Positions 4,489 to 59,370 of a stretch of DNA of 60,342 nt are shown here, one piece after another (within the stretch, counting starts at the first letter, position 1; each line of letters starts with the position of its first letter). Origin of the DNA: a virus (Duplodnaviria; Caudoviricetes); the IMG/VR virus record IMGVR_UViG_3300005613_000071, positions 1 through 60,342 of that record. One strand, 5' to 3'. Under the pieces are notes generated by a model, which saw only the letters and a program-made list of their open reading frames with translations, ran no database searches and was not told the origin of the DNA. The position numbers and the translations under genes were made by a program.

Positions 4489-4781
4489 TTGGGTTGCTCG
4501 GCTTTATCTCAGGCATCCTCTCATCCATTGCAGTTGCCTCCATCGTGTACGAGCTTCGTGCTCGTCACGAAGGCAACTACGGAAACAAGTATGAAGAGTA
4601 CGTGCCGCAGATGTATCGAATGCGCTCTGGAGGTATGACCATCAGGGAGATTGCCAAGTATACAGGCATCCCCAAGTCCACCGTTCATCGATACTTGCAA
4701 GCTGTAGACCGAGGTCTTCACAGCTCATCAGATTACGAGGTGTCTGAGGATGGCTCGATTAAAAAGAAGCTCAATGATTAA
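4485..4781 (+). CDS. HTH protein with N-terminal hydrophobic segment
   Basis: GMTIREIAKYTGIPKSTVHRYL is a classic HTH; first ~22 aa hydrophobic. Confidence 0.7.
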   Translation: MIGLLGFISGILSSIAVASIVYELRARHEGNYGNKYEEYVPQMYRMRSGGMTIREIAKYTGIPKSTVHRYLQAVDRGLHSSSDYEVSEDGSIKKKLND

Positions 4782-5562
4782 CATCCCCGAAGCCCTGCAA
4801 GAGCGGTACAACAAGCCGCACCTTTCTTACTCGTCGCTGAAGGTGGCGCTCACCGACATGGCGAGGTTCGACCAATACATGAAAGGTGAGTTGAAGTTTG
4901 AGTCACCTGCCCTCGCCTTCGGGTCTCTCTACGATATGCTCTTGTTCGAGCGTGACAAAGCCTTCGATACCTACGCAGTAGTATCAGATGATGCTATCAT
5001 CGACAGGTGCTCTGACAAGACTCGCTCCTCTAAGCGACCGAAGCTTACGAAGGAGTACAAGGATATGCAGAAGTACCTCATCGAGGAGGCAAGCAAGCAG
5101 GGTAAGATGCTGTGCTCACCCGACGACTGGAAGCAAGCGAACGAGATGATCGACAGGCTCGAACGTTGCGGCCTCGTAAGTGACATGTTGTCCTCGGGCA
5201 AGTATCAAGTGGAGTTCAACGAAATGATTGGGCCCGTAAAGGTCAAAGGCTTTCTCGATTGCCTCGGCGACGGGTTCATCGTAGACTCCAAGTCCACTAA
5301 GGCTGTCGATAAATTCCGCTACAGCGTACGTGATTTCTGCTACGACATCCAAGCTTACATCTACTGCAAGGTGTTCGGTGTCAACAAGTTCTACTGGCTT
5401 GTGCAAGAGAAGACGTACCCGTATCTACCTGCAGTAGTAGAGTGTTCAGATGAAACCCTGTTCGCTGGAGAGATGAAGTTCAATGACGCTGTTGAGCGCA
5501 TCACGAACTTCCTCGAAGGCAACAAAGCACCTGACCAAGACTATGTACAATTCAAAGTTTGA
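4774..5562 (+). CDS. PD-(D/E)xK exonuclease (RecE/DUF3799-like)
   Basis: LSYSSLK, ALAFGS, KGFLD...IVDSKST, YDIQAYIY motifs. Confidence 0.8.
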   Translation: MINIPEALQERYNKPHLSYSSLKVALTDMARFDQYMKGELKFESPALAFGSLYDMLLFERDKAFDTYAVVSDDAIIDRCSDKTRSSKRPKLTKEYKDMQKYLIEEASKQGKMLCSPDDWKQANEMIDRLERCGLVSDMLSSGKYQVEFNEMIGPVKVKGFLDCLGDGFIVDSKSTKAVDKFRYSVRDFCYDIQAYIYCKVFGVNKFYWLVQEKTYPYLPAVVECSDETLFAGEMKFNDAVERITNFLEGNKAPDQDYVQFKV

Positions 5563-5949: not shown

Positions 5950-6061
5950 ACCAGTAGGGCTTTACGCAGCTATCGAGTGGGGGCTGAGGAACATTAAGTT
6001 CCTTGGTCCCTTCTCTTTCTGTGGAAGTAAAGACGACATCAACCTGACATTTCACTGCATC

Positions 6062-17974: not shown

Positions 17975-18183
17975 TGAACCTGGTTCTTGGCCAAGAGGAG
18001 TTTAATCTCCTGGATGTCCGCCATAAGTTTTTTGAAATCAGATTTAAATTCTTTATTGTCCGCTTCGAGAGCGTATACCCTTGAGCTAAGCTTGTTATAG
18101 TCCGCCTGGAACTTAATCCACCCGCCGACAAGCGTGCCAGCTACGGCAAGAAACTCGAAGTGAGATAGATATTGTTCAATCAT
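17971..18183 (-). CDS. Small TM + coiled-coil protein (lysis region)
   Basis: FLAVAGTLVGGWI segment then heptads; ATGA coupling. Confidence 0.65.
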   Translation of the reverse strand: MIEQYLSHFEFLAVAGTLVGGWIKFQADYNKLSSRVYALEADNKEFKSDFKKLMADIQEIKLLLAKNQVQ

Positions 18184-18623
18184 TTCTTGGACTTTTCTAT
18201 GGTCCTACCAGCGAAGTAGGCACCAAATGATGTTAGCATAAGTATCTCCAGCAAAGATACATAACTTTCTTTGACGTTAAATGGCAGATAATCAAGTGAA
18301 TCCAGGACCATAGTCACCATAAACATGCTCATCAAAGCAATCAAAGTTACAGGGCGTATGTACTTAGCGAGCTTGATGTCGCTGTTCATGTCCGCCTTCC
18401 ATCTCTCAGTAACGTTGTTCTGGAATGCAATCTCTGCGTCAATCTTTGCCTTGACTTCTTCTGGACTCAAGTCAGGGTATTGCTTGTCAATAAGGTTCTT
18501 TACAACACCCAGCGCACCCTGATCTGGCAAGAGATCCCCCACTGTATCCAATACGTTAGGGGCCTTCTCTTTAAGCCACTTGCCAAGGCTGGTATCTTTA
18601 ATCTTCTTGCTTTCCTGACTCAT
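18180..18623 (-). CDS. Putative holin
   Basis: RWKADM...IRP, two TM helices, GAYFAGRTIEK C-terminus typical of a phage holin family. Confidence 0.7.
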   Translation of the reverse strand: MSQESKKIKDTSLGKWLKEKAPNVLDTVGDLLPDQGALGVVKNLIDKQYPDLSPEEVKAKIDAEIAFQNNVTERWKADMNSDIKLAKYIRPVTLIALMSMFMVTMVLDSLDYLPFNVKESYVSLLEILMLTSFGAYFAGRTIEKSKK

Positions 18624-21600
18624 AGATTTCTTGCATGATGTCGAGGATTGCTACGGTGTGGTTTCTGAAACCTCTCCCGTCAAACTCCTTGACTGAGTTG
18701 TACTTATCATTAATCTCATCGAGAGCCTCAACCTTTTCGTCATCGTTCATCATCTCATACTGAACGCTGTTCATCAGGTTCTCGACGTCTTGATATCTTT
18801 CTTTACCAGCCACAGCCATGAGGCTGTTCATCTGCTCCGTGTTGAAGTAAACCCCGCTCTGCACGAACTTCTCATCATTAAGGAAGGTGTAGTTCTTGCC
18901 GAGCATACGGAGAGCCATCAGTTCTTTTTTGCTTGTCACGTCTGGAACGCTCACCTTGCGCTTCTTGGCAAAGGATGGGGTTGATACCACTTTAGAAACT
19001 GTTTCGGTAGATTCGAACAGCCTGTAGATTTCCTGAGATACTGGGTCATCCTCGCCTTGTCTAAGCTTGGTCACATCAAACAACTGATACATCCATCCAA
19101 CATTGCCTCGTGGGTTCTGCTTGATAGGGTTGCCCTTCCAGTCTACACGAACAGGGATGTCTGCACCTCCAAACGTCCGATCTTTGATCGTGTATTCTAG
19201 GTTAGCCATAAGTCTCTCTGCGCGGTCCATGTCCTTGGTGATGCGTCTGTCTGGCAGGAACTCTCTCTGAGCTCTGTAGATAGCGCTAAACTGGTTTGGA
19301 AGTATGACTGACATACCTACGTTTGCGATGCTGTTCAAGAGGTTATCAGAGGATCTCTCTACCTCCCCGCCAGCGAGGATCTGCAAGAAGTCATTGAGCC
19401 CCTGCAAGAAGCTCTGCTCCATCATGGATCCAGCGGCAGTCAAAGGGCCTATGCTTACCATGTCTGAGAACATGTGTTTAGCAAAGTCAATAGCTCCATC
19501 GTACTCACGTTCCCTCACTTCTTCTTTGTCATACCCTACTGCAACAGCGGCCATCAACGCTCCAGGAAGCCCGAGCTTCATGTAGTTGACGAACACGTCA
19601 TCATCTTGCTTCGACGCATCCTCTCCAGAAAGCATGCGCTTAAGGGCTGAGATGTTTATACTAGTAGGGGGGAACTGGTCGTAAGCAAGGTTCTTCTCTT
19701 CGTCCTCATCCCACTGCACTGGACCAGACAGGATACCCTCAGACAACAGCATCACCGCTGTCTCTGTTACCACGGCTCCGATCATAGCCTTGGCCACGTG
19801 TCTCGAAGCCTCGTCAAGATTGCCCTTCTTCATTTCGCTTGAGGCTCTGGCCGCAGCTACAATAGGTGACGCAAACGTAGCGCTCTCGATAAGGATGTTA
19901 GCTGGCGTGCTACGGAACGGAATCATAAACCTAAGCAAGGCCTTTGCTGTTTGCTCACCGTTGATGTATGGCAACATGTCCAGGGCTTCACCCATCTTGC
20001 GCTCCACAAAGCCTATGCTTTCGTTTACACCCTTAGAGAATGCAGTCTCCTCTTGGAATGTGATTCTACGCCCAGCGCCTCTAGCCTTCTCAGCATTCTT
20101 TCGTGGTGGGTGCTTTAGGAAATCGGCCAACGCCTCACCCTCAAGCCCCATCTCCATGGCCTGCTCGTACAGATTCTTATCTTCAAAATACTTTCTGAAC
20201 GGCGTGTCACCCAGAGACAACAGACGGAACATTACCTCTGCTGGAACTCCGAACGACCCCTGTACTGCCAACTTAAGTCGTTGGCTAGGTGGGATATCCT
20301 TTCCGCTGATAGCAGCCATCATAGATCTAAACGGCATGAGGCCTCTCGACTGTCGCCACTCCGTCGTGTCTTTGTCTTGGCCCGTGATGACTTGATCGAT
20401 GGTATCGACGAAGTTCTCGCCCATGTGACTCATGGCGTAGAAGTACGCGCCAAGAGATACACGCCTGTCGGCGTCATACTCTTTGCCAGCCAGCCTTGAC
20501 AATGACGACATGAAGGCTTTGACAGGAGCGGCGGTAATGTCGACTCCTACATCAAGGATAGAGTTTACCCCGTTGGCTTCGATGTTAGTAACTTGAGACA
20601 TGGTGGTCAACAGGTTTCCTTGAGCAATCTGACCAAGTAGCTCGCCCCATCCGCGCTCAATAACTACGTTGGTGAACGTATCCATCTCTCTTTCTACAGC
20701 CTTCAGGCGCTTGACGGCGTCTTCAAGTTCCTTTCCTACCTTCTCTCCACGTATGGCCCTTGTCTCAAGGTCTTCCACCTGAGCCTGGGCCTGGAACATC
20801 TGACCAGCCAAGTCATCGAGACGCTTGGCTTGCTCCTCAGTTAGCTTGTTTCCTTTGGCTTCTGCTGCCGCCGTGATGATAGACACCAATCCTTTTGGCG
20901 AGCTCCTCTTTACCTCTCTAAAATGGCGAAGCAATCGTCCAGCGGTAGTGCCCATAGATGACATCTCAGCAATAAGGTCTGGGATGATGTCTGCCTCTCC
21001 CCTAGCTACAGCTCTTGCAAGCCTCTCTGCTTGAGCGAGAACGCCGAGGTTGTCGTTCATAGTAGAGATTCTTCCAAGCTGTTCGTCATTGACGATGTCG
21101 ATAAGCTCTTGGTCAGTAAGGTCCTGGACATCTTTCTTTAAAGACTTAAGCTTCTGTGGAGTAATGTAGTTGCGAGGATCCTTAACGATCTTGGTTCTAA
21201 TGTCTGGATCAAAGCGTCCCTTCTGGCGACTAGCCGTCTGACGCATCTTCTTCTTCGTAGCTGTTGCAATCGATGCACGCTCTACTGCATCAGCCATGTT
21301 AGCCGCCACCTGAGACTCGCTGACCGCAACATCAGAAGGTACAACCATATTGTCGTATGCCGCCTCAAGAGCTTCGCGTGAATCAAACTCCATACCAAGC
21401 ACACCCTTGGCGTACCCCTCAAAGCGAGCGACAGCCTTGTCATACTTGGCCCCGCGAGTAGTTCTCTTGATTCTAGATTCTTCTGACTCGATTGTGCCTC
21501 TATCCAGGATTGGGTCTGACATATCGTAGTACTCAATCTTACCTCTCAGGTATACGTCGTTACCGATGATAGTAGCTTCTTCAGCCGACTTAACTGGACG

Positions 21601-24600
21601 TCCAGCCATATCAACAAACACGTTGTGGCTGAATGGGTTAAACTTAACTCTAACCCCGTCATAGTTGAGGTCAGTGCCTGAACCCACAAACTCACCATTG
21701 ACACTAGCCATCGGGAACTTGTTTTCTTGGAACGTAACAATCTTCTCTCTTGCGTTTTGATTTACATAAAGCTCTACGTTCTTAACCGTTACTGCTGGAG
21801 CGTATGTCAATGCTTCGCCGCTAGCAGTCTTGTCGTGCACGGTCTGCACTGGAACGCCAGTGTTCTTCATGACGTTGAGGTTGAGTCGGATACCTACCTT
21901 TTTCCCTGGCTCTATGTTGACTCCCTTAGCCAGGATGCGTCGTGAAGTAGCATCTGTTGACAACGCCTCATCGACTACAGTCTTGGATATCTTTACACTT
22001 GCACCCCTGACCTTAGTCATGGTGCCAACGTCTTTAGTTCTTGTTCTGAAGAGGCTGTTCTCTGCTGCATCTATGGTCTTGCCTTCGAGCTTGGTGTTAA
22101 GCTTTCTTCCTGGGGTAGGCATAACCTTCTCTGTAATTGGGTCTACGTTATCGAAAGACAAAGCCAGCTGATCACCAGGGACAGCATCCAACCCAACTGT
22201 GTTTGCGTCAGATCCGATAGACCGCTCCATCGCTGACTTGTAGTCGCTAATGAATGGCCTTCCTTGGTAGCTACTCATGGAGTACACGCCGTCGTGATAC
22301 ATGAGTTGCTGTACTTGGAATGGAGTCAACCCCATCTTTTTAGCAACCTTCTTCACAAACAGAGTAGACTCTGAATCATCATAGACGTCAAAATCTCTGA
22401 GCCTTTCAATCTGATTTCCAACCAGCTCTTTATAGATTCTAGCTGCGCCGTTTCTTACCTTGTCGTCACCCTTAGACTTGAGGTCTCTGATGGTGGCAAA
22501 CACCTCGGCATCAGAAGCCATTGCGTTCACGTCTGCTCCTAGCGCATTTAAGCGGGCAATAGCTGACGTTCTTACATCTTCTGATATGACTAGGCCCTCG
22601 GAGTAATCAACTTGATTAAACCTGCCTCTAAATACGTTGAACTGATCACGGAAGTGTCCGTCTTTAGGGATGGCATTCTTATCTCCAGTGTTTCCAAGGT
22701 ACAGATCTGCAAGCTTAGTTGTGTTTGCTCCGATCATAGACGCCAAGGCTGGGATGTTGCGAGAATCTCTCTTCTTGGCGGACTTGATGAATTGCTCCTC
22801 GTTCAACTTGCCGTCGATGTAGTACTGCTTGAAGATCTCGTTAATGTCAGACAAGTGTTTAGCCATGGTGTTAGCTCTGTCGCCTCGAACCATGCCGAGG
22901 GTACCGTCTTGTTCTCTCTTTGAGATGGCTTCAATCCTTCCTGGGGAGATGAACTCAGTAGCTCCGCTCTGCACGCGCTTGAGCCCAGCCTTAAATAGCT
23001 GCAAGCTTAGGTTTAAGTTTGGATCGATCTGAGACCCATTGGACGTGTATGACACGAGAAGGTCGTACATCATTTTAAAATCCATTGGATTGACCTCTAT
23101 TGATTCGTCAGCCGCAATAGACTTCATGACCTCGGACCTGCCCTCCTCGTAGTTACCTACTGCATCAGCCACGTCGGTGTTATGATCGTGAATCAAGTGT
23201 TGACGCAAGATGTCTAGTGACTGAGCAGCAATATCCACGCTCTGTTCGAGTGTTGGGTTATCGCCAATCTGCTGCTTAACCAAGCTGCTCTCCATTTGAA
23301 GCAACGATGACTTGTCATTAATCGAGCACGTTCCAGCACCAACCGCGCACAAGGCTCTGGCCTTGTCTCGAAGCTGTGCTTGGTATCTAGTAGACACCTC
23401 TGGGTCTGATACTATCCTGTCCGTAAAGGCGTACGCGGCTCTCTCAGTCACCCCGTCAGAGTCGTCGACGCCGAACTCTTCGTTGGCTTGCTGATATGCT
23501 TCTTGCACTTCCTCAAGGGTGGCGTAATCGTGGATGATGTCGTAAGCAAAGTCCTCCTTGGTGTAGTACTTGTCAACCTTTTGTTGTTCAATCTCATAGA
23601 TCGCATCCACCCTGTCTTGATCCATGGTCTTTACGATACGTTCAAGAGCAGAGATGTAATCCTTACCCATGTATGGCGGCTCACCCTTTGTCTTGCGTCG
23701 CTCTATATTGAGAAGCTTCGTAAACTTAGGCAGGATGTCTCTTTTGATCGAGTCTTTTTCTTTGGCTACGCGCGCTTTATCTTCTTTATATACTGGGGGC
23801 CGAAGCTTCCAGCTCTTCATGACGTCAGCATTGACAGGCTCTGTACTCCCGTCTGGCTTAACTAGCTCAAATTGTCCATACCTAACACTGCCCTTGCCCT
23901 TGCCCATGTCAGTGGCGTACTTCCACCAGTTAATGAAGTCCCACTTGCCGTTGAAAGTCTTCTCTTCTACGAATGAATTAGACGGACCGCCAAACCTATC
24001 ATAGAGCCCTCTTACATACTTGATTTTAAATGATCCACTCTCAGGAAGTTTGGACGGAGACAGAGCTGCTCTCTCAGTCGTGGTTTCTGCTGCTGTCTCT
24101 GACACAACAAAAGCCTCGCCAGTTTTAAGAGATCGCTGCAACTTCTGAAGAATAGGCTTAGCCTGCGAGATGTCCTCGATAAGCATAGCGTCCCGTCCAA
24201 GGGTGGCCTTCATGAACTTGTTGATGGCTACTCTGATGCGGTCAAGAAGATTCGGATCGGAGTAATCGTAGTTAAGGAGTTCTGTAAAGTATTCTACGAT
24301 CTGCTCTTCTGTAACCTCTTGCTCTTTTGCGTTGCGAACTTTACGATACAAGTCGCCCTTCTGCTCCACAATAGAGACGAGCTCTTCCTTGCCTGAGTTC
24401 CGAGCTATACCTTCGAGTTCATCGATCAGTCCGTACACCACCTTGGGGTTGTTCTTGTACGCCTTTCTCAGGGCTGGGCCTATGGTAGTGTGGAGCACCT
24501 CCTCTACAATAACTGCTCGTGGGTCCTTGCCACTCTTTCTAGATTCAGCTAGCCGCTTAGCATTCAGGTGTATTTCAATGCTCCCGTCTGGATTGTTTAC

Positions 24601-27525
24601 TGCAAGAGCGTTCGTTGGGGCGACCACATTAGATGATCTATCGCCAGACTCCTGAGTGTTGTGAACCACCACCTTGAAGTTCGAGCCAGCAGCAGCCTTA
24701 AGCGCTGGAGCAAGCATCTTGTTGATGACCCTAATGTCCTTTTTCGTGAGACCAGGGATAGACGTAATAGCTAGGCTGCCATCACTCTTGGCTTGAAACT
24801 CATCGAACTCTCCGTCAATACCACGGGAAGCAACTTTTTCTTGAGGCTGTTCTCTTACCTCTTCTTTGGTCGGCTCAACCTTAGGCTCGACAGGCTTAAC
24901 GAGATTTCGGATATCAGCAACCCTCTCGGCCTCTGGCTTCAGGTCTCCCTCAGCAGTGCCCGTTCCACCCGTGTCGATCTCCTCCATATTCTTGAGATCC
25001 CAAACAGCCTTCTGGTTGTACTGCTTACCAAGCTCAATGCCTACCTCTTTATCTACTGTGGCGGCTACGTCAATGTATGTCTTATTGTCGTTTGCATCGA
25101 ACCAAGTTCCTACTGAGATCACATCCTCGTTGCCTTCGAACAAGTCGTTGTTATCCTTCACGAATGCTTCGAGATCTTCTGCTGAGATGTCACCCTCGAC
25201 AATCTTGCTTCTCTCTGGGAAGATGCTTACGCTAGTCTTTTCTTGTCCAGCCTGATTTATTCCGTCGAGAGTAAACGTAGACCCCTTAGCTTCTTGGTCT
25301 GCATTGTGGTTTTCAAGCTGAGCTGCAGCTGAGTATTGCTGCGTAACTTCTGGAGCCTTCTCTTCAATGTTTGGGTTTATAGCCTTAAGCCCCAAGTGGT
25401 TGCGAAGGTCCTGCTCTGCAATGTACGCTTCTTCTGCAGCCTTTGTGAGCTCCTCGGTCATACCAGCCTGCGTTTGTGAAGCGCCTCGCTCGTCGCGCAA
25501 TACGCTTCTCTTCTCGCCGAGAACTCCGAGCAGTCTCAATGCTTCCTTCCTGTGGTCATTAGCTTTGTTGAGCCTGTCTGACAAGTCAGATATCACACGA
25601 GGATCGGTATCAACCCCCACTGCTCCGCTCATAGCTTCGTCAAGGGATTCTTTAAGAACAGCAACTTCGCCTCTAATGTTGTCCATCCTGTGGGCAACGC
25701 GAGAGTCCTCGTACTTTCTGCGCTCTTCTATATTCAGGTCAGTGCTCTCACCAGAGTGAGAGTTAATAATGCGCATGCGCTGGTCAACCAACGTGAAGAT
25801 GTTGCCAGTCAGCGCCTCAAGCTCTACGTCACTAACTCCTTGCTTCTGAGCATTCTTGTATCTGATAGTGGCTTGCTCAATAGCGATGTCAATATTATTG
25901 ATTCTCTCCATCTCTTTTGGATGGCGGAGTGTCATCATCCTATAGAACGTTTCCTTGGTAGCTTTCTCTTGCTGAAGCTGTTGGTCAAAGTTCTTTGAGA
26001 GTAGAGGGTCCACAGACTGTGACTTGTTCAAGGACTCAACGTTCTGCTGATCCTTGGACGTCATGCCGCTTTTCTCTACGCGAGAGTTGACGGCTGCCTG
26101 TGGTCTGCGAACAGCGTCGGCTCCCGCATCGAGTGCACGACGCGCACCTCCTGGGGCAGCGATAGTGCCTGAAGAGGCAATACCCATGACGGTAGCCTCA
26201 AGCCACCTGTCGAAGTAGTCGTCACCAGTGTAGTCTACGTTACCACCGATGTCCTCAGACAGCATGCGTGACGCCTCTTGCAATCCCTCAACACCACCCT
26301 CCGACAAAGCCTCAAGGCCTTGGTGTCTAAGGTATGTTCTAAGAGCTTCTGTAGCAGTCTCCTTCCTGAGGGGGTTGCTGATCATGTTCTTGAATGACCT
26401 CTTCAGGATGCTAGATTGAATAGATCCACCGCCAGCTGTAAGGGCGCCGTCCGCCACAGACATAAAGATTCTAGCAGCCTCTCCTTTAGCCGTGTCATCG
26501 AAGACAGGCTCTAATCCCTGCTGAATCCTGTTAAGATCTTCTCTCTCTGAGTCTTGGTAAGTGTTAGATGCAGCCACCGTGCCGCCGACAGCAATGCCTA
26601 CTGGCCCGAGAGCTGCCGCCGCAATGTACGGGGCACTGCCAGACACGGCTCTAGTGGATCTAGTAACGAGTTCAGCAACATCTCCAATGCTGTTAATATC
26701 CGTGGCTCTTTCCACAAAGCCTGTAGTGTACTGAGTTGTATAATCCGTTCTGGCTTTTTCTGTGAAGTCAGAAAGCTCCTGGTCTATAGATCTTTTGTAT
26801 GACTCTCTTACTTCGGCAGACATATATCCAGGCATAGCTGCGGCAGCAGAAGACATTGGGCCAGACAAGAAGTCAATCGTAGACATGCCCAGCTCAACAG
26901 CGTTGTCTCTAAAGAAGTCCCAAACACCACCACCAAAGCCAGTAGTCTCATTGTATCTGTCGTCACCATCCAGCGGGATAGCCAGCCCAAACTGGGAGTA
27001 GAGTCTGTTCGCGTAATCTTCTTTGTCTACGTCAGCCTCGCCGATTCTATTGTTGATCTCGTCGCTGTATCGAGAAAGCAGATCCTTTTGCTTATCTGAA
27101 GCCTTCTTATTGATGGCCTGCTGAATCTCGAAGCTCTTTTGCTCATCGGTCTTGTCCGTAGATCGGATGTCACTGACCATGGAGTTAAACTCTTCGTCAT
27201 CAAAAACGCTAGCATGAAGTTCTGCTTGGTCTGCAGCGAAGCGCTCGGCATACTCTCTACCGATACCGCTTACACTAAGATCTTGTGCGGGCGGAGAAGA
27301 AGCCAATTCTTCTTCCGAAGGCACTGAAGCTATAAGCGGTGTAGTTGTCGCCTCTGGTGATTCTAAATCTTTTTTTTTTGACTCATCAATCAGACCACTC
27401 GCATAATTCAATATGCCATCGTAGTCTATAGACTCGTCTTCAAAGTACAGTTCGTTGGCAATCCATGATGGGTTTTTACCTGCTGTGATGTACTCTTGTA
27501 TTCTTGCTTGAAGCTGTTCGTTCAT
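18598..27525 (-). CDS. Giant (2975 aa) multidomain virion cargo/ejection (polyvalent) protein
   Basis: Last gene of the virion operon; Gly/Ala-rich membrane-like segments; several embedded enzyme-like domains. Confidence 0.8.
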   Translation of the reverse strand: MNEQLQARIQEYITAGKNPSWIANELYFEDESIDYDGILNYASGLIDESKKKDLESPEATTTPLIASVPSEEELASSPPAQDLSVSGIGREYAERFAADQAELHASVFDDEEFNSMVSDIRSTDKTDEQKSFEIQQAINKKASDKQKDLLSRYSDEINNRIGEADVDKEDYANRLYSQFGLAIPLDGDDRYNETTGFGGGVWDFFRDNAVELGMSTIDFLSGPMSSAAAAMPGYMSAEVRESYKRSIDQELSDFTEKARTDYTTQYTTGFVERATDINSIGDVAELVTRSTRAVSGSAPYIAAAALGPVGIAVGGTVAASNTYQDSEREDLNRIQQGLEPVFDDTAKGEAARIFMSVADGALTAGGGSIQSSILKRSFKNMISNPLRKETATEALRTYLRHQGLEALSEGGVEGLQEASRMLSEDIGGNVDYTGDDYFDRWLEATVMGIASSGTIAAPGGARRALDAGADAVRRPQAAVNSRVEKSGMTSKDQQNVESLNKSQSVDPLLSKNFDQQLQQEKATKETFYRMMTLRHPKEMERINNIDIAIEQATIRYKNAQKQGVSDVELEALTGNIFTLVDQRMRIINSHSGESTDLNIEERRKYEDSRVAHRMDNIRGEVAVLKESLDEAMSGAVGVDTDPRVISDLSDRLNKANDHRKEALRLLGVLGEKRSVLRDERGASQTQAGMTEELTKAAEEAYIAEQDLRNHLGLKAINPNIEEKAPEVTQQYSAAAQLENHNADQEAKGSTFTLDGINQAGQEKTSVSIFPERSKIVEGDISAEDLEAFVKDNNDLFEGNEDVISVGTWFDANDNKTYIDVAATVDKEVGIELGKQYNQKAVWDLKNMEEIDTGGTGTAEGDLKPEAERVADIRNLVKPVEPKVEPTKEEVREQPQEKVASRGIDGEFDEFQAKSDGSLAITSIPGLTKKDIRVINKMLAPALKAAAGSNFKVVVHNTQESGDRSSNVVAPTNALAVNNPDGSIEIHLNAKRLAESRKSGKDPRAVIVEEVLHTTIGPALRKAYKNNPKVVYGLIDELEGIARNSGKEELVSIVEQKGDLYRKVRNAKEQEVTEEQIVEYFTELLNYDYSDPNLLDRIRVAINKFMKATLGRDAMLIEDISQAKPILQKLQRSLKTGEAFVVSETAAETTTERAALSPSKLPESGSFKIKYVRGLYDRFGGPSNSFVEEKTFNGKWDFINWWKYATDMGKGKGSVRYGQFELVKPDGSTEPVNADVMKSWKLRPPVYKEDKARVAKEKDSIKRDILPKFTKLLNIERRKTKGEPPYMGKDYISALERIVKTMDQDRVDAIYEIEQQKVDKYYTKEDFAYDIIHDYATLEEVQEAYQQANEEFGVDDSDGVTERAAYAFTDRIVSDPEVSTRYQAQLRDKARALCAVGAGTCSINDKSSLLQMESSLVKQQIGDNPTLEQSVDIAAQSLDILRQHLIHDHNTDVADAVGNYEEGRSEVMKSIAADESIEVNPMDFKMMYDLLVSYTSNGSQIDPNLNLSLQLFKAGLKRVQSGATEFISPGRIEAISKREQDGTLGMVRGDRANTMAKHLSDINEIFKQYYIDGKLNEEQFIKSAKKRDSRNIPALASMIGANTTKLADLYLGNTGDKNAIPKDGHFRDQFNVFRGRFNQVDYSEGLVISEDVRTSAIARLNALGADVNAMASDAEVFATIRDLKSKGDDKVRNGAARIYKELVGNQIERLRDFDVYDDSESTLFVKKVAKKMGLTPFQVQQLMYHDGVYSMSSYQGRPFISDYKSAMERSIGSDANTVGLDAVPGDQLALSFDNVDPITEKVMPTPGRKLNTKLEGKTIDAAENSLFRTRTKDVGTMTKVRGASVKISKTVVDEALSTDATSRRILAKGVNIEPGKKVGIRLNLNVMKNTGVPVQTVHDKTASGEALTYAPAVTVKNVELYVNQNAREKIVTFQENKFPMASVNGEFVGSGTDLNYDGVRVKFNPFSHNVFVDMAGRPVKSAEEATIIGNDVYLRGKIEYYDMSDPILDRGTIESEESRIKRTTRGAKYDKAVARFEGYAKGVLGMEFDSREALEAAYDNMVVPSDVAVSESQVAANMADAVERASIATATKKKMRQTASRQKGRFDPDIRTKIVKDPRNYITPQKLKSLKKDVQDLTDQELIDIVNDEQLGRISTMNDNLGVLAQAERLARAVARGEADIIPDLIAEMSSMGTTAGRLLRHFREVKRSSPKGLVSIITAAAEAKGNKLTEEQAKRLDDLAGQMFQAQAQVEDLETRAIRGEKVGKELEDAVKRLKAVEREMDTFTNVVIERGWGELLGQIAQGNLLTTMSQVTNIEANGVNSILDVGVDITAAPVKAFMSSLSRLAGKEYDADRRVSLGAYFYAMSHMGENFVDTIDQVITGQDKDTTEWRQSRGLMPFRSMMAAISGKDIPPSQRLKLAVQGSFGVPAEVMFRLLSLGDTPFRKYFEDKNLYEQAMEMGLEGEALADFLKHPPRKNAEKARGAGRRITFQEETAFSKGVNESIGFVERKMGEALDMLPYINGEQTAKALLRFMIPFRSTPANILIESATFASPIVAAARASSEMKKGNLDEASRHVAKAMIGAVVTETAVMLLSEGILSGPVQWDEDEEKNLAYDQFPPTSINISALKRMLSGEDASKQDDDVFVNYMKLGLPGALMAAVAVGYDKEEVREREYDGAIDFAKHMFSDMVSIGPLTAAGSMMEQSFLQGLNDFLQILAGGEVERSSDNLLNSIANVGMSVILPNQFSAIYRAQREFLPDRRITKDMDRAERLMANLEYTIKDRTFGGADIPVRVDWKGNPIKQNPRGNVGWMYQLFDVTKLRQGEDDPVSQEIYRLFESTETVSKVVSTPSFAKKRKVSVPDVTSKKELMALRMLGKNYTFLNDEKFVQSGVYFNTEQMNSLMAVAGKERYQDVENLMNSVQYEMMNDDEKVEALDEINDKYNSVKEFDGRGFRNHTVAILDIMQEIYESGKQED

Positions 27526-51313: not shown

Positions 51314-51802
51314 ATGAATCATTGCACTTACTGCGGAGCGGAAAGCAAAAACCCAAGGTTCTGCTCCAGGTCTTGCTCGGCCAGCTATACAAACAAGGCT
51401 TCACCGAAAAGAAAGTTAAAAAGAAAATGCAAGAAGTGCGATGAAGTAGTAAGAAACTATAGGTCTACACTTTGCCAGCTACACTGGGATGAACACACGG
51501 AGTGGAACAAAGAGAATAGAAGGTCAAAGACGATAGGCGAAGTCGTGGAAAAAAGATCTAATCTACATCGCAGCTCAGCATATGCTGATATAAGAAACTT
51601 TGCGCGACACGATCACAAAGAAATGCTGAAGAATCCATGCTACAACTGTGGATATGATAAGCATGTTGAACTGTGTCATATAAAAGCCATAAGCGAGTTC
51701 ACGTTAGAAGCAACAATCAACGAGGTTAACGCTGCCTCTAACGTGATTCAACTCTGCCCTAACTGCCATTGGGAATTTGACAACGGCGTGTTAGAATTGT
51801 AG
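51314..51802 (+). CDS. HNH homing endonuclease with N-terminal zinc fingers
   Basis: CTYC, FCSRSC, CKKC; CYNCGY...ELCHIK...N...NVIQLCPNCH; antisense to the surrounding operon. Confidence 0.85.
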   Translation: MNHCTYCGAESKNPRFCSRSCSASYTNKASPKRKLKRKCKKCDEVVRNYRSTLCQLHWDEHTEWNKENRRSKTIGEVVEKRSNLHRSSAYADIRNFARHDHKEMLKNPCYNCGYDKHVELCHIKAISEFTLEATINEVNAASNVIQLCPNCHWEFDNGVLEL

Positions 51803-51873
51803 ACGGGGTGGGACTCCAACCCACATATGCCAATTTAGAAGATTGGTGCATTATGCTGTTATGCTACCCGTCC
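51800..51873 (-). tRNA. tRNA-Arg (anticodon TCT), divergent
   Basis: Acceptor GGACGGG/CCCGTCT; D-stem GCAT/ATGC; anticodon arm CCAAT-CTTCTAA-ATTGG; T-arm GTGGG-TTGGAGT-CCCAC; no encoded CCA. Confidence 0.75.
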
Positions 51874-55388: not shown

Positions 55389-55878
55389 TAGAGTATTGCT
55401 TTAAGTAATAAGCGTAACTCACTGCTATAGAACAGCTTATATGATACATGCATAGGAAAAAGAAGCAGTGATCGAGAGTGGACTCGCCTAAGAAAAGAAG
55501 TGAGAAATAAAGATTGTGGGGATAATACGTACCTATAGACGTCACACCCCCGCACCCGAAACGCATTACGTACCCCCGTGGGTACAACACGCTACACGTT
55601 TGGCGCATACATTTCAGCTTTTCGTAACAGGCTGGTGGCGAGCAGGTTAGAGCACGGCAGTTGGAGTAGCGGTACAGGTTGGAGTTTGTAGCGTCTATCT
55701 TCGATAGAGGACAATCCCCTCTCCCCTTCCCCACGAATCTGCGATTCACGTCGCATATGACGCCACACTGCAATGCGCTGTCCAGGTCATGACCCGTTGT
55801 CCAGCCTCATGTATGTACGCGGTCTGATGGGCCTTTTTACCCCCCTTAGGGGGTAACTTTTTTATCAGCAAAAAAAGA

Positions 55879-55911
55879 TTTGGAATTTGGCGGAAGTCGG
55901 TTATACCTTTG
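55879..55911 (+). promoter_or_regulatory. Early rightward Bacteroidota promoter (-33 TTTG, -7 TACCTTTG)
   Basis: TTTG 55879-55882, 21-nt spacer, TACCTTTG 55904-55911; A-tract upstream. Confidence 0.75.
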
Positions 55912-55963
55912 CAGAGCCATCGGCAATCGGTTGGTGGCATTCAAACTTCAAACTTCATCTCCG

Positions 55964-56527
55964 ATGAACAACAATCAATCTCGTATCAACCTCCTCAAGG
56001 AGGTTAAGTCAGCAGTCAACACTGCTTCGTTCGCTCCAACCTCAGACCGCATCGAAGATGCGAAGAAGGCGGTTCAGGAACTCATGTCATACGTCGAATC
56101 CCTCGAAGAGGGACTGAAGCCAAAGCGTCGTCGTAAGACGAAGCAGAAGTCTTCCAAGGCTACCCCAGCTACCAAGGTAGCAGACCGCCAAGAGAAGGCT
56201 TTCCATGGCCGTCCTGACACTCCTGTCACACCATCCACACGGAAGCCGAAGGCTTCGGTCGAGGCGGCTCGGAAAGCGGCTCACGACGTGTCACGTCACA
56301 CAGGGGCTGAAAGCCGAGCCAAGCGGAAAGCCGAGGCAGTCAAGGAGGCTGTCGTCATGCCGAAGGCCGCACCTATGAAGGTGACATCACATGATGAGGC
56401 TCGATTGGCCGACCTCGAAGCTAAGATTGAGGCTCTGATTGCCTTGCAATCCATGGGGCATGACGTTACACGTTCTGCTGAAGTACTCTTCAGCGACCTC
56501 CCCTTCGACCCTACTTCAAACCTCTAA
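55964..56527 (+). CDS. First early protein; Lys/Ala-rich with DLPF near the C-terminus
   Basis: ATG 55964 after promoter and TCAAACTTCAAA leader. Confidence 0.7.
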   Translation: MNNNQSRINLLKEVKSAVNTASFAPTSDRIEDAKKAVQELMSYVESLEEGLKPKRRRKTKQKSSKATPATKVADRQEKAFHGRPDTPVTPSTRKPKASVEAARKAAHDVSRHTGAESRAKRKAEAVKEAVVMPKAAPMKVTSHDEARLADLEAKIEALIALQSMGHDVTRSAEVLFSDLPFDPTSNL

Positions 56528-56537
56528 TTCATTGAAA

Positions 56538-56696
56538 ATGAACATCTGGCAACAACACATCAACGCCAACTACCGCAGGATGGTAGCTGAACTCAACGAT
56601 ATGGCTCGTTTCGAAGGAAACGACAAGGCTCTTGCGACGCTTGATGCCATCCTCGACTGCCTGAATGCTCAAAGAGCACAACTCGAACAACAATAA
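56538..56696 (+). CDS. Small early protein (52 aa)
   Basis: MNIWQQHINANY...; in-frame ATG just after upstream stop. Confidence 0.6.
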   Translation: MNIWQQHINANYRRMVAELNDMARFEGNDKALATLDAILDCLNAQRAQLEQQ

Positions 56697-56701
56697 CCCT
56701 T

Positions 56702-56760
56702 GAGTGGGGGAGTATATACACCTTCTGAGTTTACGAAGAAGGTGATATACGACCCCTCTC
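56702..56760 (+). repeat. GA-mismatch hairpin element, copy 1
   Basis: GGGG-GA-GTATAT-A-CACCTTCT-GAGTTTACGA-AGAAGGTG-ATATAC-GA-CCCC. Confidence 0.85.
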
Positions 56761-56796
56761 TCTAACTCGAAATTCAAACTTCAAAATTCAATCATC

Positions 56797-57000
56797 ATGT
56801 CAAACGTTTCAGACATCATCGACTCCGTCATCGCTTCAGGTTACATGACAAGTGTAGACGTATACAAGACGTTCGAGGACTCCGAAGCCGAACGGAAGTA
56901 CATCCTCAAGTATCACTTGGACGAAGAACTTGAGCAGTTCTTGATGTGCAAGGCAATGGAGGATGCTCTCACCCCCAAGCCTGACAAGCCCCCATACTGA
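56797..57000 (+). CDS. Small early protein
   Basis: 67-aa ORF after TCAAACTTCAAA leader. Confidence 0.65.
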   Translation: MSNVSDIIDSVIASGYMTSVDVYKTFEDSEAERKYILKYHLDEELEQFLMCKAMEDALTPKPDKPPY

Positions 57001-57007
57001 CATCACA

Positions 57008-57060
57008 GGTACACTGATGAGCCTTGATTAGGCGAAACACCCCCTTGGGGTGTCTGTATC
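57008..57060 (+). ncRNA. Type I hammerhead ribozyme 1
   Basis: GGTACA-CTGATGA-GCCT(TGATT)AGGC-GAAA-CACCCC(CTT)GGGGTG-TC-TGTATC; complete core; predicted cleavage after C57054. Confidence 0.9.
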
Positions 57061-57080
57061 AAACTTCAAATCTGTTCACC

Positions 57081-57209
57081 ATGAACCCTTCCAAACTCCA
57101 AGCCATCCTCGACATGTTCGAAACCTTCGGTGCTGACGTGATGTGTAACACCTCTGACTGGTGTGACCTGACCTGCGAAGAGCAGATGATTGTCGAGGCC
57201 AACCTGTAA
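57081..57209 (+). CDS. Small early protein (42 aa) bracketed by the two hammerheads
   Basis: MNPSKLQAILDMF...; stop abuts ribozyme 2. Confidence 0.6.
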   Translation: MNPSKLQAILDMFETFGADVMCNTSDWCDLTCEEQMIVEANL

Positions 57210-57261
57210 GGTACACTGACGAGTCCTCAATGGACGAAACACCCTTCGGGGTGTCTGTATC
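57210..57261 (+). ncRNA. Type I hammerhead ribozyme 2
   Basis: GGTACA-CTGACGA-GTCC(TCAAT)GGAC-GAAA-CACCC(TTCG)GGGTG-TC-TGTATC; predicted cleavage after C57255. Confidence 0.9.
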
Positions 57262-57280
57262 AAACTTCAATTCATCAGAG

Positions 57281-57463
57281 ATGAACACATATCATTACAT
57301 CATCTACTACCAGCGTGACCGCGACGATTGGCGCGATGGTCATATCACGGCTAACAGCCTCGAAGAGGCCTTGAGCAAGTGTCACTACAACTTCCGTCAC
57401 ACTCCGTGGACCTTGAAGAAGGTGGAGTTGGTAAAAGATAACTCGTTGATTGTCAACGCATAA
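57281..57463 (+). CDS. Small early protein (60 aa)
   Basis: MNTYHYIIYY...ITANSLEEAL. Confidence 0.65.
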   Translation: MNTYHYIIYYQRDRDDWRDGHITANSLEEALSKCHYNFRHTPWTLKKVELVKDNSLIVNA

Positions 57464-57474
57464 CATCACATTAC

Positions 57475-57549
57475 ATGAACAAAAACTTGAACCTCGCTTT
57501 CCTTGCGTGGATGTCACTCCTTGCGTTGGTGGCCTTCCTCCAACACTAA
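57475..57549 (+). CDS. 24-aa hydrophobic peptide MNKNLNLAFLAWMSLLALVAFLQH
   Basis: Read manually; single TM-like helix filling the intergenic gap. Confidence 0.45.
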   Translation: MNKNLNLAFLAWMSLLALVAFLQH

Positions 57550-57553
57550 AATA

Positions 57554-57611
57554 GAGAGGTGAGTATATATACCTTCTGAGTTTACGAAGAAGGTAATATA
57601 CGAACCCTCTC
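57554..57611 (+). repeat. GA-mismatch hairpin element, copy 2
   Basis: Same core with compensatory TACCTTCT/AGAAGGTA; outer stem GAGAGG/CCTCTC. Confidence 0.85.
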
Positions 57612-57637
57612 AAATGTCAAACTTCAAACTTCAAATC

Positions 57638-57862
57638 ATGAAAAACTTCTTTTCTCAACCTGTTGGCCGTGCGGTTCTGTTCCTCAACGGCTTCCACTTC
57701 GGAAAGCGACTCAACGACCTGAATCGGTGTGCTCGGCTTGTTCCGAAGGACGTGAAGGGCTTTGCCTCCCTCCTCACAATGATGCCTGACGCTGACGCTG
57801 AACACGTTGGCGCAATCATCGACGAGTTGGTGTTCCTCGCTGACCAAATCGAGGGGGTATGA
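57638..57862 (+). CDS. Small early protein
   Basis: MKNFFSQ... after TCAAACTTCAAACTTCAAA leader. Confidence 0.65.
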   Translation: MKNFFSQPVGRAVLFLNGFHFGKRLNDLNRCARLVPKDVKGFASLLTMMPDADAEHVGAIIDELVFLADQIEGV

Positions 57863-58056
57863 CACAAGATAAATGCGAACGTGCAGTCCAAGCACTGCAA
57901 AACCACGGCTTCAAGGCCTCTCACGTAATGGGTGGACCTGACGACCACGGGGTGTGGTTGGATGCCGTATGGACAGACAAGCTCGGAGATGCGTGTAGCT
58001 TCCGCATCCACGACGAAGAAATCGAATGGTGGCAAACCCAAAACGAACCAGCATGA
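57859..58056 (+). CDS. Small early protein
   Basis: ATGA-coupled 65-aa ORF. Confidence 0.65.
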   Translation: MTQDKCERAVQALQNHGFKASHVMGGPDDHGVWLDAVWTDKLGDACSFRIHDEEIEWWQTQNEPA

Positions 58057-58199
58057 CACAAGCAGAACGACTCGACAACCGCACGAAGAACTGCGGTAGC
58101 TTTGAACTTGCGCTCATCAGGGCGTGGTTCAAGGCCGATAGCAACAACAAGAAGATTCTCGAAAACGCCTTCAAGGGCACAATGTTTGACCTCACATGA
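58053..58199 (+). CDS. Small early protein (48 aa, GSF...L..AWFKADSNN..IL..AF)
   Basis: Read manually; ATGA overlaps at both ends. Confidence 0.6.
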   Translation: MTQAERLDNRTKNCGSFELALIRAWFKADSNNKKILENAFKGTMFDLT

Positions 58200-58378
58200 A
58201 AAATTACCATAAGTGCCACAAGTGTGGCGGCCAAGGAATCTTCCTCGAATCACAAGAAGTGGGGTGCACCACAAACGGATACATCCAGATAGAGCACGAC
58301 TACGAGTGCGAGGACTGCCGAGCCACATGGGAAGTAAACTTTGAATTAACACCAAAAGAAAGAGATAACCATGAATGA
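58196..58378 (+). CDS. Zinc-ribbon protein
   Basis: CHKCGG...CEDCRATW. Confidence 0.7.
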   Translation: MKNYHKCHKCGGQGIFLESQEVGCTTNGYIQIEHDYECEDCRATWEVNFELTPKERDNHE

Positions 58379-58514
58379 CATCATCGAAGTAATCATCGAA
58401 CTCTCCCGTATGCAGGGGCAGGCAATCGATCGGGCACAGGCAGAGGCCATCAACACTGCCGTAGAGAAAGGCTACGACAAGTGGCAAAACGAATCAAAGG
58501 ATTTGGTTGATTGA
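58371..58514 (+). CDS. Small early protein (47 aa, MNDIIEVII...)
   Basis: Read manually; overlaps upstream ORF end. Confidence 0.5.
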   Translation: MNDIIEVIIELSRMQGQAIDRAQAEAINTAVEKGYDKWQNESKDLVD

Positions 58515-58526
58515 AGTTTGACCATC

Positions 58527-58608
58527 GAGGGGGCAGAGCAAATAACTCATGTCGGGTAAATACCATAGCTCTTACGGCTGAAACGTCAGTCCGCCCCCTC
58601 ACTTTTTT
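58527..58608 (+). ncRNA. Multi-stem structured element followed by T6 tract
   Basis: Closing stem GAGGGGGC/GCCCCCTC; inner stems AGAGC/GCTCT, GGTA/TACC, GGCTGA/TCAGTC. Confidence 0.5.
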
Positions 58609-58609
58609 C

Positions 58610-58690
58610 AAGGGAGCGCAGTCGGTGCGTACATCAAGGTGTTACACGACACCAAGGATGGCAGTTGTGTTCGAATCCCAACCTCCCTTC
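58610..58690 (+). ncRNA. tRNA-like element
   Basis: Acceptor-like AAGGGAG/CTCCCTT; CGCA/TGCG; GGTGT/ACACC; T-loop TTCGAAT in GTTGTG/CCCAAC. Confidence 0.6.
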
Positions 58691-58693
58691 TAT

Positions 58694-58748
58694 GTGTGAG
58701 TGTATATACACCTTCTGAGTTTACGAAGAAGGTGATATACACGAACAC
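58694..58748 (+). repeat. GA-mismatch hairpin element, copy 3
   Basis: GTGT-GA-GTGTATAT-A-CACCTTCT-GAGTTTACGA-AGAAGGTG-ATATACAC-GA-ACAC. Confidence 0.85.
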
Positions 58749-58782
58749 TTCAAATCATTTTCAAACTTCAAATCAATTCAGC

Positions 58783-59370
58783 ATGAAACAATATGCAGTA
58801 ATCCACGCTGTCGCAGGACTCTTCGAAGGGTACTCCGACACCACTTGCGAGTTCTTCCCCAAGCGGGGATTCGCAGAGAAGCACATCAACCAAATCCTGT
58901 CTGACTACGCAAACGATGATATGTGTGTGGACGTCAGCGGAGGGTTTGACGATGGCATTTACGCCACCATGACCCGTGACTACGAGGACTATGCGGCTTG
59001 CGTACCATCTGATATGTCGCATGACGATTGGGTTGCAGAGAATGGCGACGACGTTAGTGTCGAGGTGTTCCGCATCATCGAGGTTGATATGTCCAACCGC
59101 TCCGACTCCACCGAGTCATGTTGGTTGACGTGGGACCAACAGGATACTACCCAAGCATGGGACTACTTCCCCTTGTGTATGTCCTTGGTGGCTCGTGTCT
59201 CCTCTGATGTCATGGACAACGACCAATCGGTTCACGGCCTCGAACAACTGACGGACTTCATCTCCTCGGTATACTACGGCAGTCACGCTCTCATCGACAT
59301 CGACGACTATGTGATGCACGCTTTCCGTATCCCCAAACCAAAGAACAATGACGAAGAAACAACTGCTTGA
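58783..59370 (+). CDS. Acidic early hypothetical protein
   Basis: MKQYAVIHAV... after TCAAACTTCAAA leader; C-terminus duplicated at window start. Confidence 0.75.
   Translation: MKQYAVIHAVAGLFEGYSDTTCEFFPKRGFAEKHINQILSDYANDDMCVDVSGGFDDGIYATMTRDYEDYAACVPSDMSHDDWVAENGDDVSVEVFRIIEVDMSNRSDSTESCWLTWDQQDTTQAWDYFPLCMSLVARVSSDVMDNDQSVHGLEQLTDFISSVYYGSHALIDIDDYVMHAFRIPKPKNNDEETTA

Follow-up and report, generated by a model that had tools for sequence, protein, structure and literature searches.

Predicted hammerhead ribozymes, tandem-GA hairpins and tRNA-shaped elements share slots before a common leader in the early region of a roughly 60 kb phage

The virus record IMGVR_UViG_3300005613_000071, analysed here over its full 60,342 bases (hereafter the window; completeness estimate 99%), carries between positions 55879 and 59370 an array of small early genes separated by structured spacers, and we find that hammerhead motifs, long hairpins, tRNA-shaped elements and host-type promoters stand in for one another at orthologous positions among its relatives, upstream of a standard leader. 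We read this, with a probability of about 0.55 for the reading as a whole, as a punctuated early operon in a phage that resembles podoviruses, has a genome of roughly 60 kb and infects marine Flavobacteriia; its early RNA would be divided into units by interchangeable structured modules and the standard leader. In the mechanism we propose, one host-type promoter would drive a string of small genes of unknown function, and the modules between them would be of three kinds, namely self-cleaving type I hammerheads, hairpins of 20-28 base pairs (bp) with a tandem-GA apex, and one or more tRNA-shaped elements, each placed a few bases past the stop codon of one unit and a few bases 5′ of a leader. 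The hammerheads would cut themselves, after which the ribozyme body would cap the 3′ end of the upstream RNA and the downstream RNA would begin with a 5′-OH, 4 nucleotides (nt) 5′ of the leader; the long hairpins would act as sites for a double-strand-specific nuclease of the RNase III type and/or as barriers to exonucleases, and the tRNA-shaped element is a candidate site for RNase P and RNase Z. Each unit would in this way have protected ends of its own, and translation of every unit would start from the same unstructured region, which would suit a host starting translation without Shine-Dalgarno pairing. The leader would double as homology for the exchange of modules and genes between phages, and a single anti-leader in the 3′ untranslated region (UTR) of the fifth unit would base-pair with it.

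A sequence-only reading of the region, made from the letters and their open reading frames (ORFs), had already laid out this array, and each of its elements is present where it was placed or a few bases away, far above chance (Table 1). The promoter at the start of the array follows the pattern TTTG-N21-TAccTTTG, the consensus of Bacteroidota promoters; as that reading had proposed, it belongs to the host type, with 5 genome matches against 0.9 expected. The leader TCAAACTTCAA has 14 genome matches at ≤1 mismatch, against 1.77 expected and with none of 100 shuffles reaching 14. Its exact copies on the + strand number seven and all lie within 55941-58771, and the last copy of each block ends 3-12 nt 5′ of an ATG, in agreement with the earlier claim that every block is followed by the same leader and then a start codon. 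The standard leader (UCAAACUUCAA) is G-free. Downstream of ORF 57638-57862 the array continues with four overlapping ORFs without leaders, the last of which ends at 58514.

Table 1. Features of the early array and its borders, with positions in the window. R1 and R2 are the models for hammerheads and long hairpins, respectively, described in the text.
Feature	Position	Strand	Remarks
Terminator-like GC hairpin and T-run	55837-55866	+	TTACCCCCCTTAGGGGGTAA then CTTTTTTATC; 5′ of the early promoter
Host-type (Bacteroidota) promoter, TTTG-N21-TAccTTTG	55879-55911	+	
5′ UTR hairpin, between promoter and first leader	55916-55938	+	-13.9 kcal/mol, z -3.27
Leader copies 1 (TCAAACTTCAA) and 1b (TCAAACTTCAT)	55941-55958	+	5′ of ORF 55964-56527
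Long hairpin 1 (GA-hairpin)	56702-56760	+	-33.6 kcal/mol, z -6.12; R2 70.2 bits on +, 30.3 on -
Leader copies	56774-56791	+	5′ of ORF 56797-57000
Type I hammerhead 1	57008-57060	+	predicted cut 57054/57055 (GUC/U); R1 77.9 bits
Leader	57059-57069	+	5′ of ORF 57081-57209; overlaps the last 2 nt of hammerhead stem I
Type I hammerhead 2	57210-57261	+	predicted cut 57255/57256; R1 79.5 bits; Hammerhead_1 22.8 bits, E 0.04
Leader	57260-57270	+	5′ of ORF 57281-57463
Long hairpin 2 (GA-hairpin)	57553-57611	+	z -7.15; R2 64.8 bits on +, 30.8 on -
Leader, two exact copies that overlap	57617-57634	+	5′ of ORF 57638-57862
Anti-leader TTGAAGTTTGA	58511-58521	+	exact reverse complement of the leader
GC-rich multi-stem element, then AC and T6 run	58527-58608	+	conserved UGAAACGUCA apical hairpin
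tRNA-shaped element	58610-58689	+	folds of 63-130 nt variants
Long hairpin 3 (GA-hairpin)	58692-58750	+	z -7.64; R2 61.8 bits on +, 29.4 on -
Last leader copy	58761-58771	+	5′ of ORF 58783-59370

The equivalence of the modules is seen when the same gene is followed through related loci. For these counts the ORFs of all loci were clustered and the sequences upstream of them read by eye, one row per contig, since an automatic "long hairpin" label (a fold of ≥18 pairs) also fired before leaderless genes, in about 1 in 8; as many contigs are close relatives, the counts are of contigs and not of independent events. Eight loci (L001-L003, L006, L008, L010, L012 and L014) duplicate others (L138, L120, L143, L145, L142, L130, L146 and L151), the pairs L133/L134, L120/L151 and L147/L148 are near-identical, and the palindromic-looking assembly L156 was ignored. 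The family of ORF 57081, with 20 contigs, is preceded by a hammerhead in 9 (two of them candidates, with a hammerhead-like core and a large stem III insert at the leader) and by a long hairpin in 11, so that the proposal that the two occupy equivalent slots holds. Among the 27 contigs of the ORF 57638 family, 18 have a long hairpin, 2 a hammerhead, 3 a host-type promoter and 4 no structured spacer, and the slot 5′ of ORF 58783 holds a hairpin of type A, B or C (see below) in some relatives and, in others, a promoter, an overlapping ORF or just a tRNA-shaped element. Among the findings that would overturn it, the sequence-only reading had named spacers that are not conserved in related phages and spacers that are each an independent primary start. 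Spacers are kept in relatives; some relatives do have a host-type promoter in the same slot, which makes a primary start there a natural alternative to the spacer rather than a refutation.

Exchange between modules can be located in the leader itself. Aligned with L146, the related locus L142 is identical to the hairpin-1 module of L146 up to the leader and, past it, to the gene that occupies the hammerhead slot in L146, from which it follows that the exchange occurred inside the shared leader. Independently, an RNA-library contig present in two runs has the leader of hairpin 2 joined to ORF 57093, an ORF that lies 3′ of hammerhead 1 in the window. The idea that the shared parts serve as anchors for gene swaps by recombination is thus supported, with the module junction falling inside the leader.

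The two hammerheads carry the full core of the type I class, with CUGAUGA or CUGACGA, GAAA, the A15.1-U16.1 pair and, for cleavage, a GUC site. Their common sequence is GGUACA-CUGA(U/C)GA-stem II-GAA-A-stem III-U-C followed by UGUAUC, and the minimum-energy fold of each is a three-helix junction. We aligned 32 of the 33 distinct relatives found in related contigs (the one at L009:786-841 is not included). The core columns are invariant in all 32, the cleavage site is GUC in 31 and GUA in one, and A15.1-U16.1 is A-U throughout. All 480 pair cells are paired, a figure to be read with the pre-filtering of stem I (≥5 of 6 pairs) during collection, stems II and III being unfiltered; when the partners are slid, pairing falls to 23-55%. 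Compensatory changes occur in 7 of the 15 pairs, and none of 500 shuffles reaches the observed covariation score. Model R1, built from this alignment, matches the genome at the two hammerhead sites only. Judged from sequence, the hammerheads are therefore real by every criterion except the Rfam threshold, and their assignment at 57008 and 57210 in the sequence-only reading stands on core, fold and covariation alike. Tandem arrangements also exist: L120 (2613-2830), as well as L151, has two hammerheads in succession, the second a hammerhead-like candidate with a stem III insert of about 110 nt, ending in GUC/UAUGUC at the leader.

The three long hairpins have an exact 22-nt core in common (three genome copies, none expected) and folding z-scores of -6.1, -7.2 and -7.6. 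From base to tip, hairpin 1 consists of an outer stem, a 2×2 GA/GA internal loop, 6 bp, a bulged A, 8 bp, a second GA/GA, a G-C pair and a UUUA loop; in hairpin 2 one C-G pair is replaced by U-A, a compensatory change. All three are members of a larger family, which we sampled in 34 protein-anchored related loci and 14 loci with the exact core, of rods of 55-70 nt with 19-28 pairs lying directly 5′ of leaders, a size that agrees with an RNase III-type site (an interrupted duplex of about ≥20 bp between cistrons). Type A, that of the window, has the apex CUGA-G-UUUA-C-GAAG and type C the apex CUGA-AC-GNA-GU-GAAG; A/C hybrids exist, and types B and D are without the GA apex. An alignment of 30 of the 62 hairpins listed, namely those of type A, type C and the hybrids that adjoin a leader (folds within coding sequence that look fortuitous were set aside, as were types B and D), has 97.2% of its cells paired and compensatory changes in 8 of 13 pairs, and its score is reached by none of 500 shuffles. 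The apical tandem GA is kept in 29 of these 30 while the surrounding stems covary; at the base, type C hairpins have single bulges instead of GA/GA. The GA motif by which the sequence-only reading had defined these hairpins is hence general to the family at the apex and not at the base.

In the variant L144, loop positions 3 and 8 change together from G-C to A-U, which resolves the apparent 10-nt loop into GA/GA, one pair and UUUA. A pseudoknot between the loop (GAGUUU) and the leader (AAACUU), considered as a candidate, was rejected, as the L144 loop (GAAUUUAUGA) breaks this pairing and keeps the intra-loop pair. Model R2 matches the genome at the three long-hairpin sites only and scores about twice as high on the sense as on the antisense strand, both there and in the protein-oriented loci, and its top-scoring matches in the 34 protein-oriented loci are all on the sense strand. 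This two-fold bias, together with the presence of G-U pairs, marks the long hairpin as a feature of RNA and not a DNA palindrome. The hairpins begin 3-6 nt past stop codons and are without the T-run seen at the genome's ordinary terminator (55837-55866). In Rfam, searched to E 10, neither the long hairpins nor the multi-stem or tRNA-shaped elements match a family, the matches being microRNA and small nucleolar RNA noise only; a 96-nt type C hairpin with its leader gave one chance match (E 0.9) against cultured phages, and a scan of viral contigs with the 14-mer CTGAGTTTACGAAG returned mostly chance matches and was not used. Directly 5′ of long hairpin 2 lies a hydrophobic micro-ORF of 24 codons (MNKNLNLAFLAWMSLLALVAFLQH, 57475-57549, + strand), and several relatives have a similar C-terminal coding sequence 5′ of the hairpin.

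The third block is composite. In its multi-stem element (58527-58600, with a U-rich tail to 58608) covariation among relatives is seen both in the closing stem and in the apical hairpin UGAAACGUCA. The tRNA-shaped element that follows is built of an acceptor-like stem of 7 bp, an arm resembling the D arm, a third arm that varies, and a GUUCGAAUCC loop like that of a T arm; variants of 63 to 130 nt take four-arm folds, in which the T stem covaries and one pyrimidine-C mismatch is kept. The third arm does not behave as an anticodon arm, as it ranges from 4 bp with a 4-nt loop up to inserts of about 70 nt. The element is found in one slot only, in 1-3 tandem copies among relatives, and a different tRNA-like element in the relative L003 scores 38.8 bits and reaches the Rfam tRNA threshold. 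The block described by the sequence-only reading is therefore there in its multi-stem, tRNA-like and GA-hairpin parts, with the tRNA detectors silent on the second of these; that RNase P or RNase Z cuts the tRNA-shaped element is at most a sensible conjecture. In six relatives (L125, L130, L132, L133, L142 and L146, 5′ of position 6001) a second and sometimes a third tRNA-shaped element stands in tandem 5′ of the same gene; the T arms of these elements are perfect and covary, and their inserts reach ≥100 nt.

Upstream of this block, the stop codon of ORF 58371-58514 lies within the anti-leader. Most related loci that cover the region have exactly one anti-leader in the same context (GGTTRRTTGAAGTTTGACC and then a G-rich stem), and the anti-leader changes together with the leader: in two lineages in which all leaders read CAAACATCAA the anti-leader is TTGATGTTTG, its A-to-T change matching the T-to-A change of the leaders, and no mixed case was seen. 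These two lineages may descend from a single event. A metagenome scan for anti-leader variants returned 89 stretches, of which 5 are related and all of the T variant; two of them have leaders in view, both matching, and no lineage beyond the two known ones appeared. With the six leader-bearing start regions the anti-leader forms predicted duplexes of -16.8 to -23.0 kcal/mol, against a genome background whose 5% tail lies at -16.8 kcal/mol, and in the fold of the whole module a helix between the anti-leader and the next leader closes the structured cluster. A preference for this next downstream leader is absent, as it ranks first in 10 of 32 loci with about 5 leaders each. A GC hairpin with a U-run lies 3′ of the anti-leader, and no promoter or processing site is visible upstream of it. 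The anti-leader may pair either in cis, in which case opening of the helix by a terminating ribosome would couple translation, or in trans, as part of a 3′-UTR-derived RNA that would target all leaders. A second exact copy at 4891-4901 (+ strand), in the loop of a small GGTGA/TCACC hairpin inside the PDDEXK-like gene of ORF 4750-5562, was not seen in relatives and may be due to chance (about 0.03 expected).

The apex of the type C hairpins also occurs outside phages. A scan of species-representative bacterial genomes with CTCTGAACNNAGTGAAGAG (17 fixed bases) gave at least 139 matches in 120 bacterial loci (L178-L297), a lower bound, where about 70 are expected by chance. Among the matches listed, 93 of 139 share a GTCA flank, 101 then have TC, and 40 have an inverted partner within 120 nt; the repeat often comes as inverted pairs 30-60 nt apart or as arrays, and the phyla represented include Ignavibacteriota, Bacteroidota, Bacillota, Chloroflexota and candidate phyla, among others. 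The hairpin apex forms the core of a bacterial repeat, GTCAYTCTGARCGNAGYGAAGARTC, of which L129:4512-4574 is a phage type C counterpart, and of its two bacterial subtypes CUCUGAAC...GUGAAGAG corresponds to phage type C and UUCUGAGC...GCGAAGAA to phage type A. No Rfam family matches the bacterial apex repeat. The shared apex suggests either that the motif has a conserved reader or that the hairpins are of mobile origin.

This repeat brings up the reading in which the long hairpins are not cut at all and only the hammerheads cut RNA, the hairpins being intercistronic blocks to 3′ exonucleases and insulators of the next start region, akin to repetitive extragenic palindromes (REPs), or else selfish palindromes that spread among spacers. 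The bacterial apex matches, with their GTCA flanks and inverted partners, do resemble REP doublets (REPINs) or miniature inverted-repeat transposable elements (MITEs), and both the start of the hairpins just past stop codons and their absence at the same gene in some relatives would fit as well. Unlike the bacterial pairs, however, the phage copies are all in sense orientation and never inverted, they share their slots with hammerheads and promoters, both of which make 5′ ends, and a leader always lies 3′ of them; we regard this reading as unlikely, though as one to be kept in mind. That the hairpins are instead protein-binding sites, their GA apex being read by a phage early protein or a host protein that would control translation or stability of the following unit in the manner of a translational operator, seems to us improbable. 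The near-invariance of the apical U-GA ... GA-A amid covarying stems and its conservation across bacterial phyla (among the matches listed), which suggests a conserved reader, speak for it, as would a presumed resemblance of the apex to the CUGA / RUGAUGA arrangement of box C/D kink-loops (K-loops). Types B and D fill the same slots without any GA apex, however, and the early proteins offer no recognisable RNA-binding domain: none of the 10 early ORFs has a PHROG match, and Pfam gives sub-threshold zinc-ribbon matches only, for one ORF. As for the kink-turn, GA/GA is present, but a mini-stem of 1-2 bp abuts it and the defining 3-nt bulge is absent; a K-loop reading of the apex is compatible with this.

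Two further readings concern how a hairpin could itself make RNA ends. Pistol, hatchet and twister-sister ribozymes were discovered adjoining hammerheads, and a hairpin that alternates with hammerheads at orthologous positions, has invariant non-paired nucleotides and matches no Rfam family at E ≤10 could in principle be a new self-cleaving class; it is a simple rod, however, with neither junction nor pseudoknot, its sole candidate tertiary pairing (GAGUUU/AAACUU) is broken in L144, and several unrelated sequence types fill its slot, all of which makes this very unlikely. We give similarly little credence to each spacer being an independent start for a phage RNA polymerase that uses hairpin promoters, as in N4-like phages. 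The genome does encode a protein of virion size (2975 amino acids, ORF 18598-27525 on the - strand, among the structural genes), and host-type promoters replace hairpins in some relatives. The only match of this protein is a short L5 gp82-like domain (PF25735, phrog_586), with no polymerase match in PDB sequences, Pfam or PHROGs; a T7-type polymerase (PF00940) is not matched in the genome either, a weak negative as the control genomes are equally silent. The G-U pairs, GA/GA loops and two-fold sense bias indicate RNA over DNA, and the hammerhead spacers are too tight for a promoter. A more far-reaching combination, in which the tandem-GA hairpins would be a new RNA-processing class (either cutting itself or recognised by a conserved nuclease or reader) that is interchangeable with hammerheads and has a bacterial repeat motif for its apex, and in which the anti-leader would be a master switch pairing with all early leaders to time translation or to couple it to the upstream ORF, we consider rather doubtful.

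Several observations weigh against the punctuated operon itself. Both hammerheads stay below the curated Rfam thresholds (Hammerhead_1 22.8 bits against 34, RAGATH-1-hammerhead 23.9 against 56.3); compared with the Rfam seeds, stem I is short and stem III long. Their stem I has only 6 bp, and although three positions of loop II (U, A and U) are invariant, we could by eye identify neither a consistent partner for them in stem I nor any tertiary contact between stem I and loop II, so that cleavage rates in vivo could be low. Only length and shape tie the long hairpins to RNase III, which leaves their cutting by this enzyme a suggestion, and their apex, common to a bacterial repeat resembling a mobile palindrome, would fit a selfish or purely stabilising role equally. 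Neither ARAGORN nor the Rfam tRNA model (E ≤10) identifies the element at 58610-58689 as a tRNA. A spacer is missing 5′ of the ORF 57638 family in 4 of 27 contigs and 5′ of the ORF 58783 family in 9 relatives, which means that the modules are dispensable at a given gene. Finally, an RNA-library contig (record 7 of run X18) runs unbroken through hammerhead 2, and uncleaved RNA or contaminating DNA must therefore exist there. None of the 24 sequencing runs compared contains half of the window's words; four RNA-library runs (X17-X20) contain 6-11%. These four consist of assembled contigs of relatives, and since contigs cannot show RNA ends, they count neither for nor against processing; their breaks inside hairpins are as expected for a three-copy repeat. 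Of the RNA-processing array put forward by the sequence-only reading, modularity, equivalence of slots and recombination accordingly hold, and processing by nucleases at the modules other than ribozymes keeps the status of a proposal.

The array opens a long block of + strand genes that spans from 55880 across the end of the record to about 17.7 kb and includes a primase-helicase, a ribonucleotide reductase and a protein that carries a CHU_C domain (type IX secretion). The - strand carries the structural genes, including the terminase, the portal and the 2975-residue protein. The terminase is 39% identical to that of Flavobacterium phages of roughly 60 kb (genus Elemovirus), and its more distant relatives are from Cellulophaga phages. 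Going by these sequence relatives, the host is a member of Flavobacteriia, in keeping with the Flavobacterium-type host guessed before, and the CHU_C domain also supports a host among Bacteroidota. With blastn, the 4.5 kb region matched none of the 50,697 phage records searched, and at gathering thresholds the only Rfam match in the whole window is a tRNA-Arg at 51800-51873.

A hammerhead of the same family occurs in a cultured relative, the Flavobacterium phage elemoE (NC_055854, L177), which infects Flavobacterium sp. BAL314 and has two hammerhead candidates in its early region. It has a type I hammerhead at 16302-16363 (- strand), which scores 50.6 bits with R1 although it lies outside that model and is followed by GUC/UUUGUCAAACUUUAAAAAC and an AUG; gp65, annotated on the opposite strand over this hammerhead, is probably spurious. 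A type III-like candidate with a GUA site (18097-18153, - strand; 36.3 bits, E 1e-4) lies in the 5′ UTR of the first early gene. Three early genes of elemoE have a common leader of their own (aactaaaatttatacayt) 5′ of the ATG.

Where a hammerhead, a hairpin, a tRNA-shaped element or a promoter can stand before the same gene and the same leader, the function they share must be something that all four provide, for which a defined RNA end or an insulated start region is the likeliest candidate. The interchange of spacers, and the presence of the same hammerhead family in a cultured Flavobacterium phage, make the role of phage ribozymes testable, and the pair of leader and anti-leader, together with the link between apex and repeat, provides new leads on the start and control of translation without Shine-Dalgarno pairing. 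A literature search of limited coverage turned up no paper that treats the long hairpins, the bacterial repeat or hammerheads in Flavobacterium phages. Within that limit, we consider new the interchange of hammerheads with covarying hairpins, tRNA-shaped elements and promoters at orthologous positions, the standard leader that doubles as a recombination joint, the anti-leader, and the apex common to a bacterial repeat.

Parts of this arrangement have counterparts in well-known systems. The early RNA of phage T7, a transcript of the host polymerase, contains intercistronic RNase III hairpins of about two helical turns with internal loops, and the hairpin remains on the upstream product as a 3′ stabiliser. 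The long hairpins resemble these sites as interrupted intercistronic hairpins in a polycistronic early RNA, their cleavage being presumed here, and differ from them in the conserved tandem-GA apex and the interchange with ribozymes; T7 is not known to have a shared leader. In mitochondrial transcripts tRNAs act as punctuation, and ribozymes resembling that of hepatitis delta virus adjoin phage tRNAs. By analogy, the tRNA-shaped element between cistrons could be excised by RNase P and RNase Z, although, unlike in tRNA punctuation, it is not a decoding tRNA and occurs in one slot only. RiboJ and Csy4 sites are engineered insulators that place a ribozyme or nuclease site before a standard ribosome-binding region; the modules described here would be their counterpart in nature, in a host that does not use Shine-Dalgarno pairing. 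In the RNA phage MS2 long-distance pairing couples translation, and small RNAs derived from 3′ UTRs are known as well. The anti-leader may be likened to the MS2 case in that the end of one reading frame, with the stop codon inside the anti-leader, would pair with the start of another gene, and is unlike it in matching all leaders about equally.

The closest precedent is found in prophages, where multiple hammerheads flank genes and the processing of long transcripts was proposed as their role (Perreault et al., 2011, PMC3088659); three tandem arrangements are described there as cleaving during in vitro transcription. The role of bacterial and phage hammerheads has been open since that discovery, and a 2019 review still calls it undefined (PMC6765202). 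To call the present array an undescribed system, as the sequence-only reading did, is therefore too strong, since both hammerhead arrays and the processing proposal are already present in the 2011 paper (PMC3088659). As in those arrays, closely spaced hammerheads flank single genes or short blocks of varying identity (PMC3088659). In contrast to the arrays as described there, the hammerheads of the phage analysed here alternate at orthologous positions with long hairpins, tRNA-shaped elements and promoters, a standard leader follows every module and is joined by an anti-leader, and the setting is a flavobacterial host and the first early genes of a lytic-type genome.

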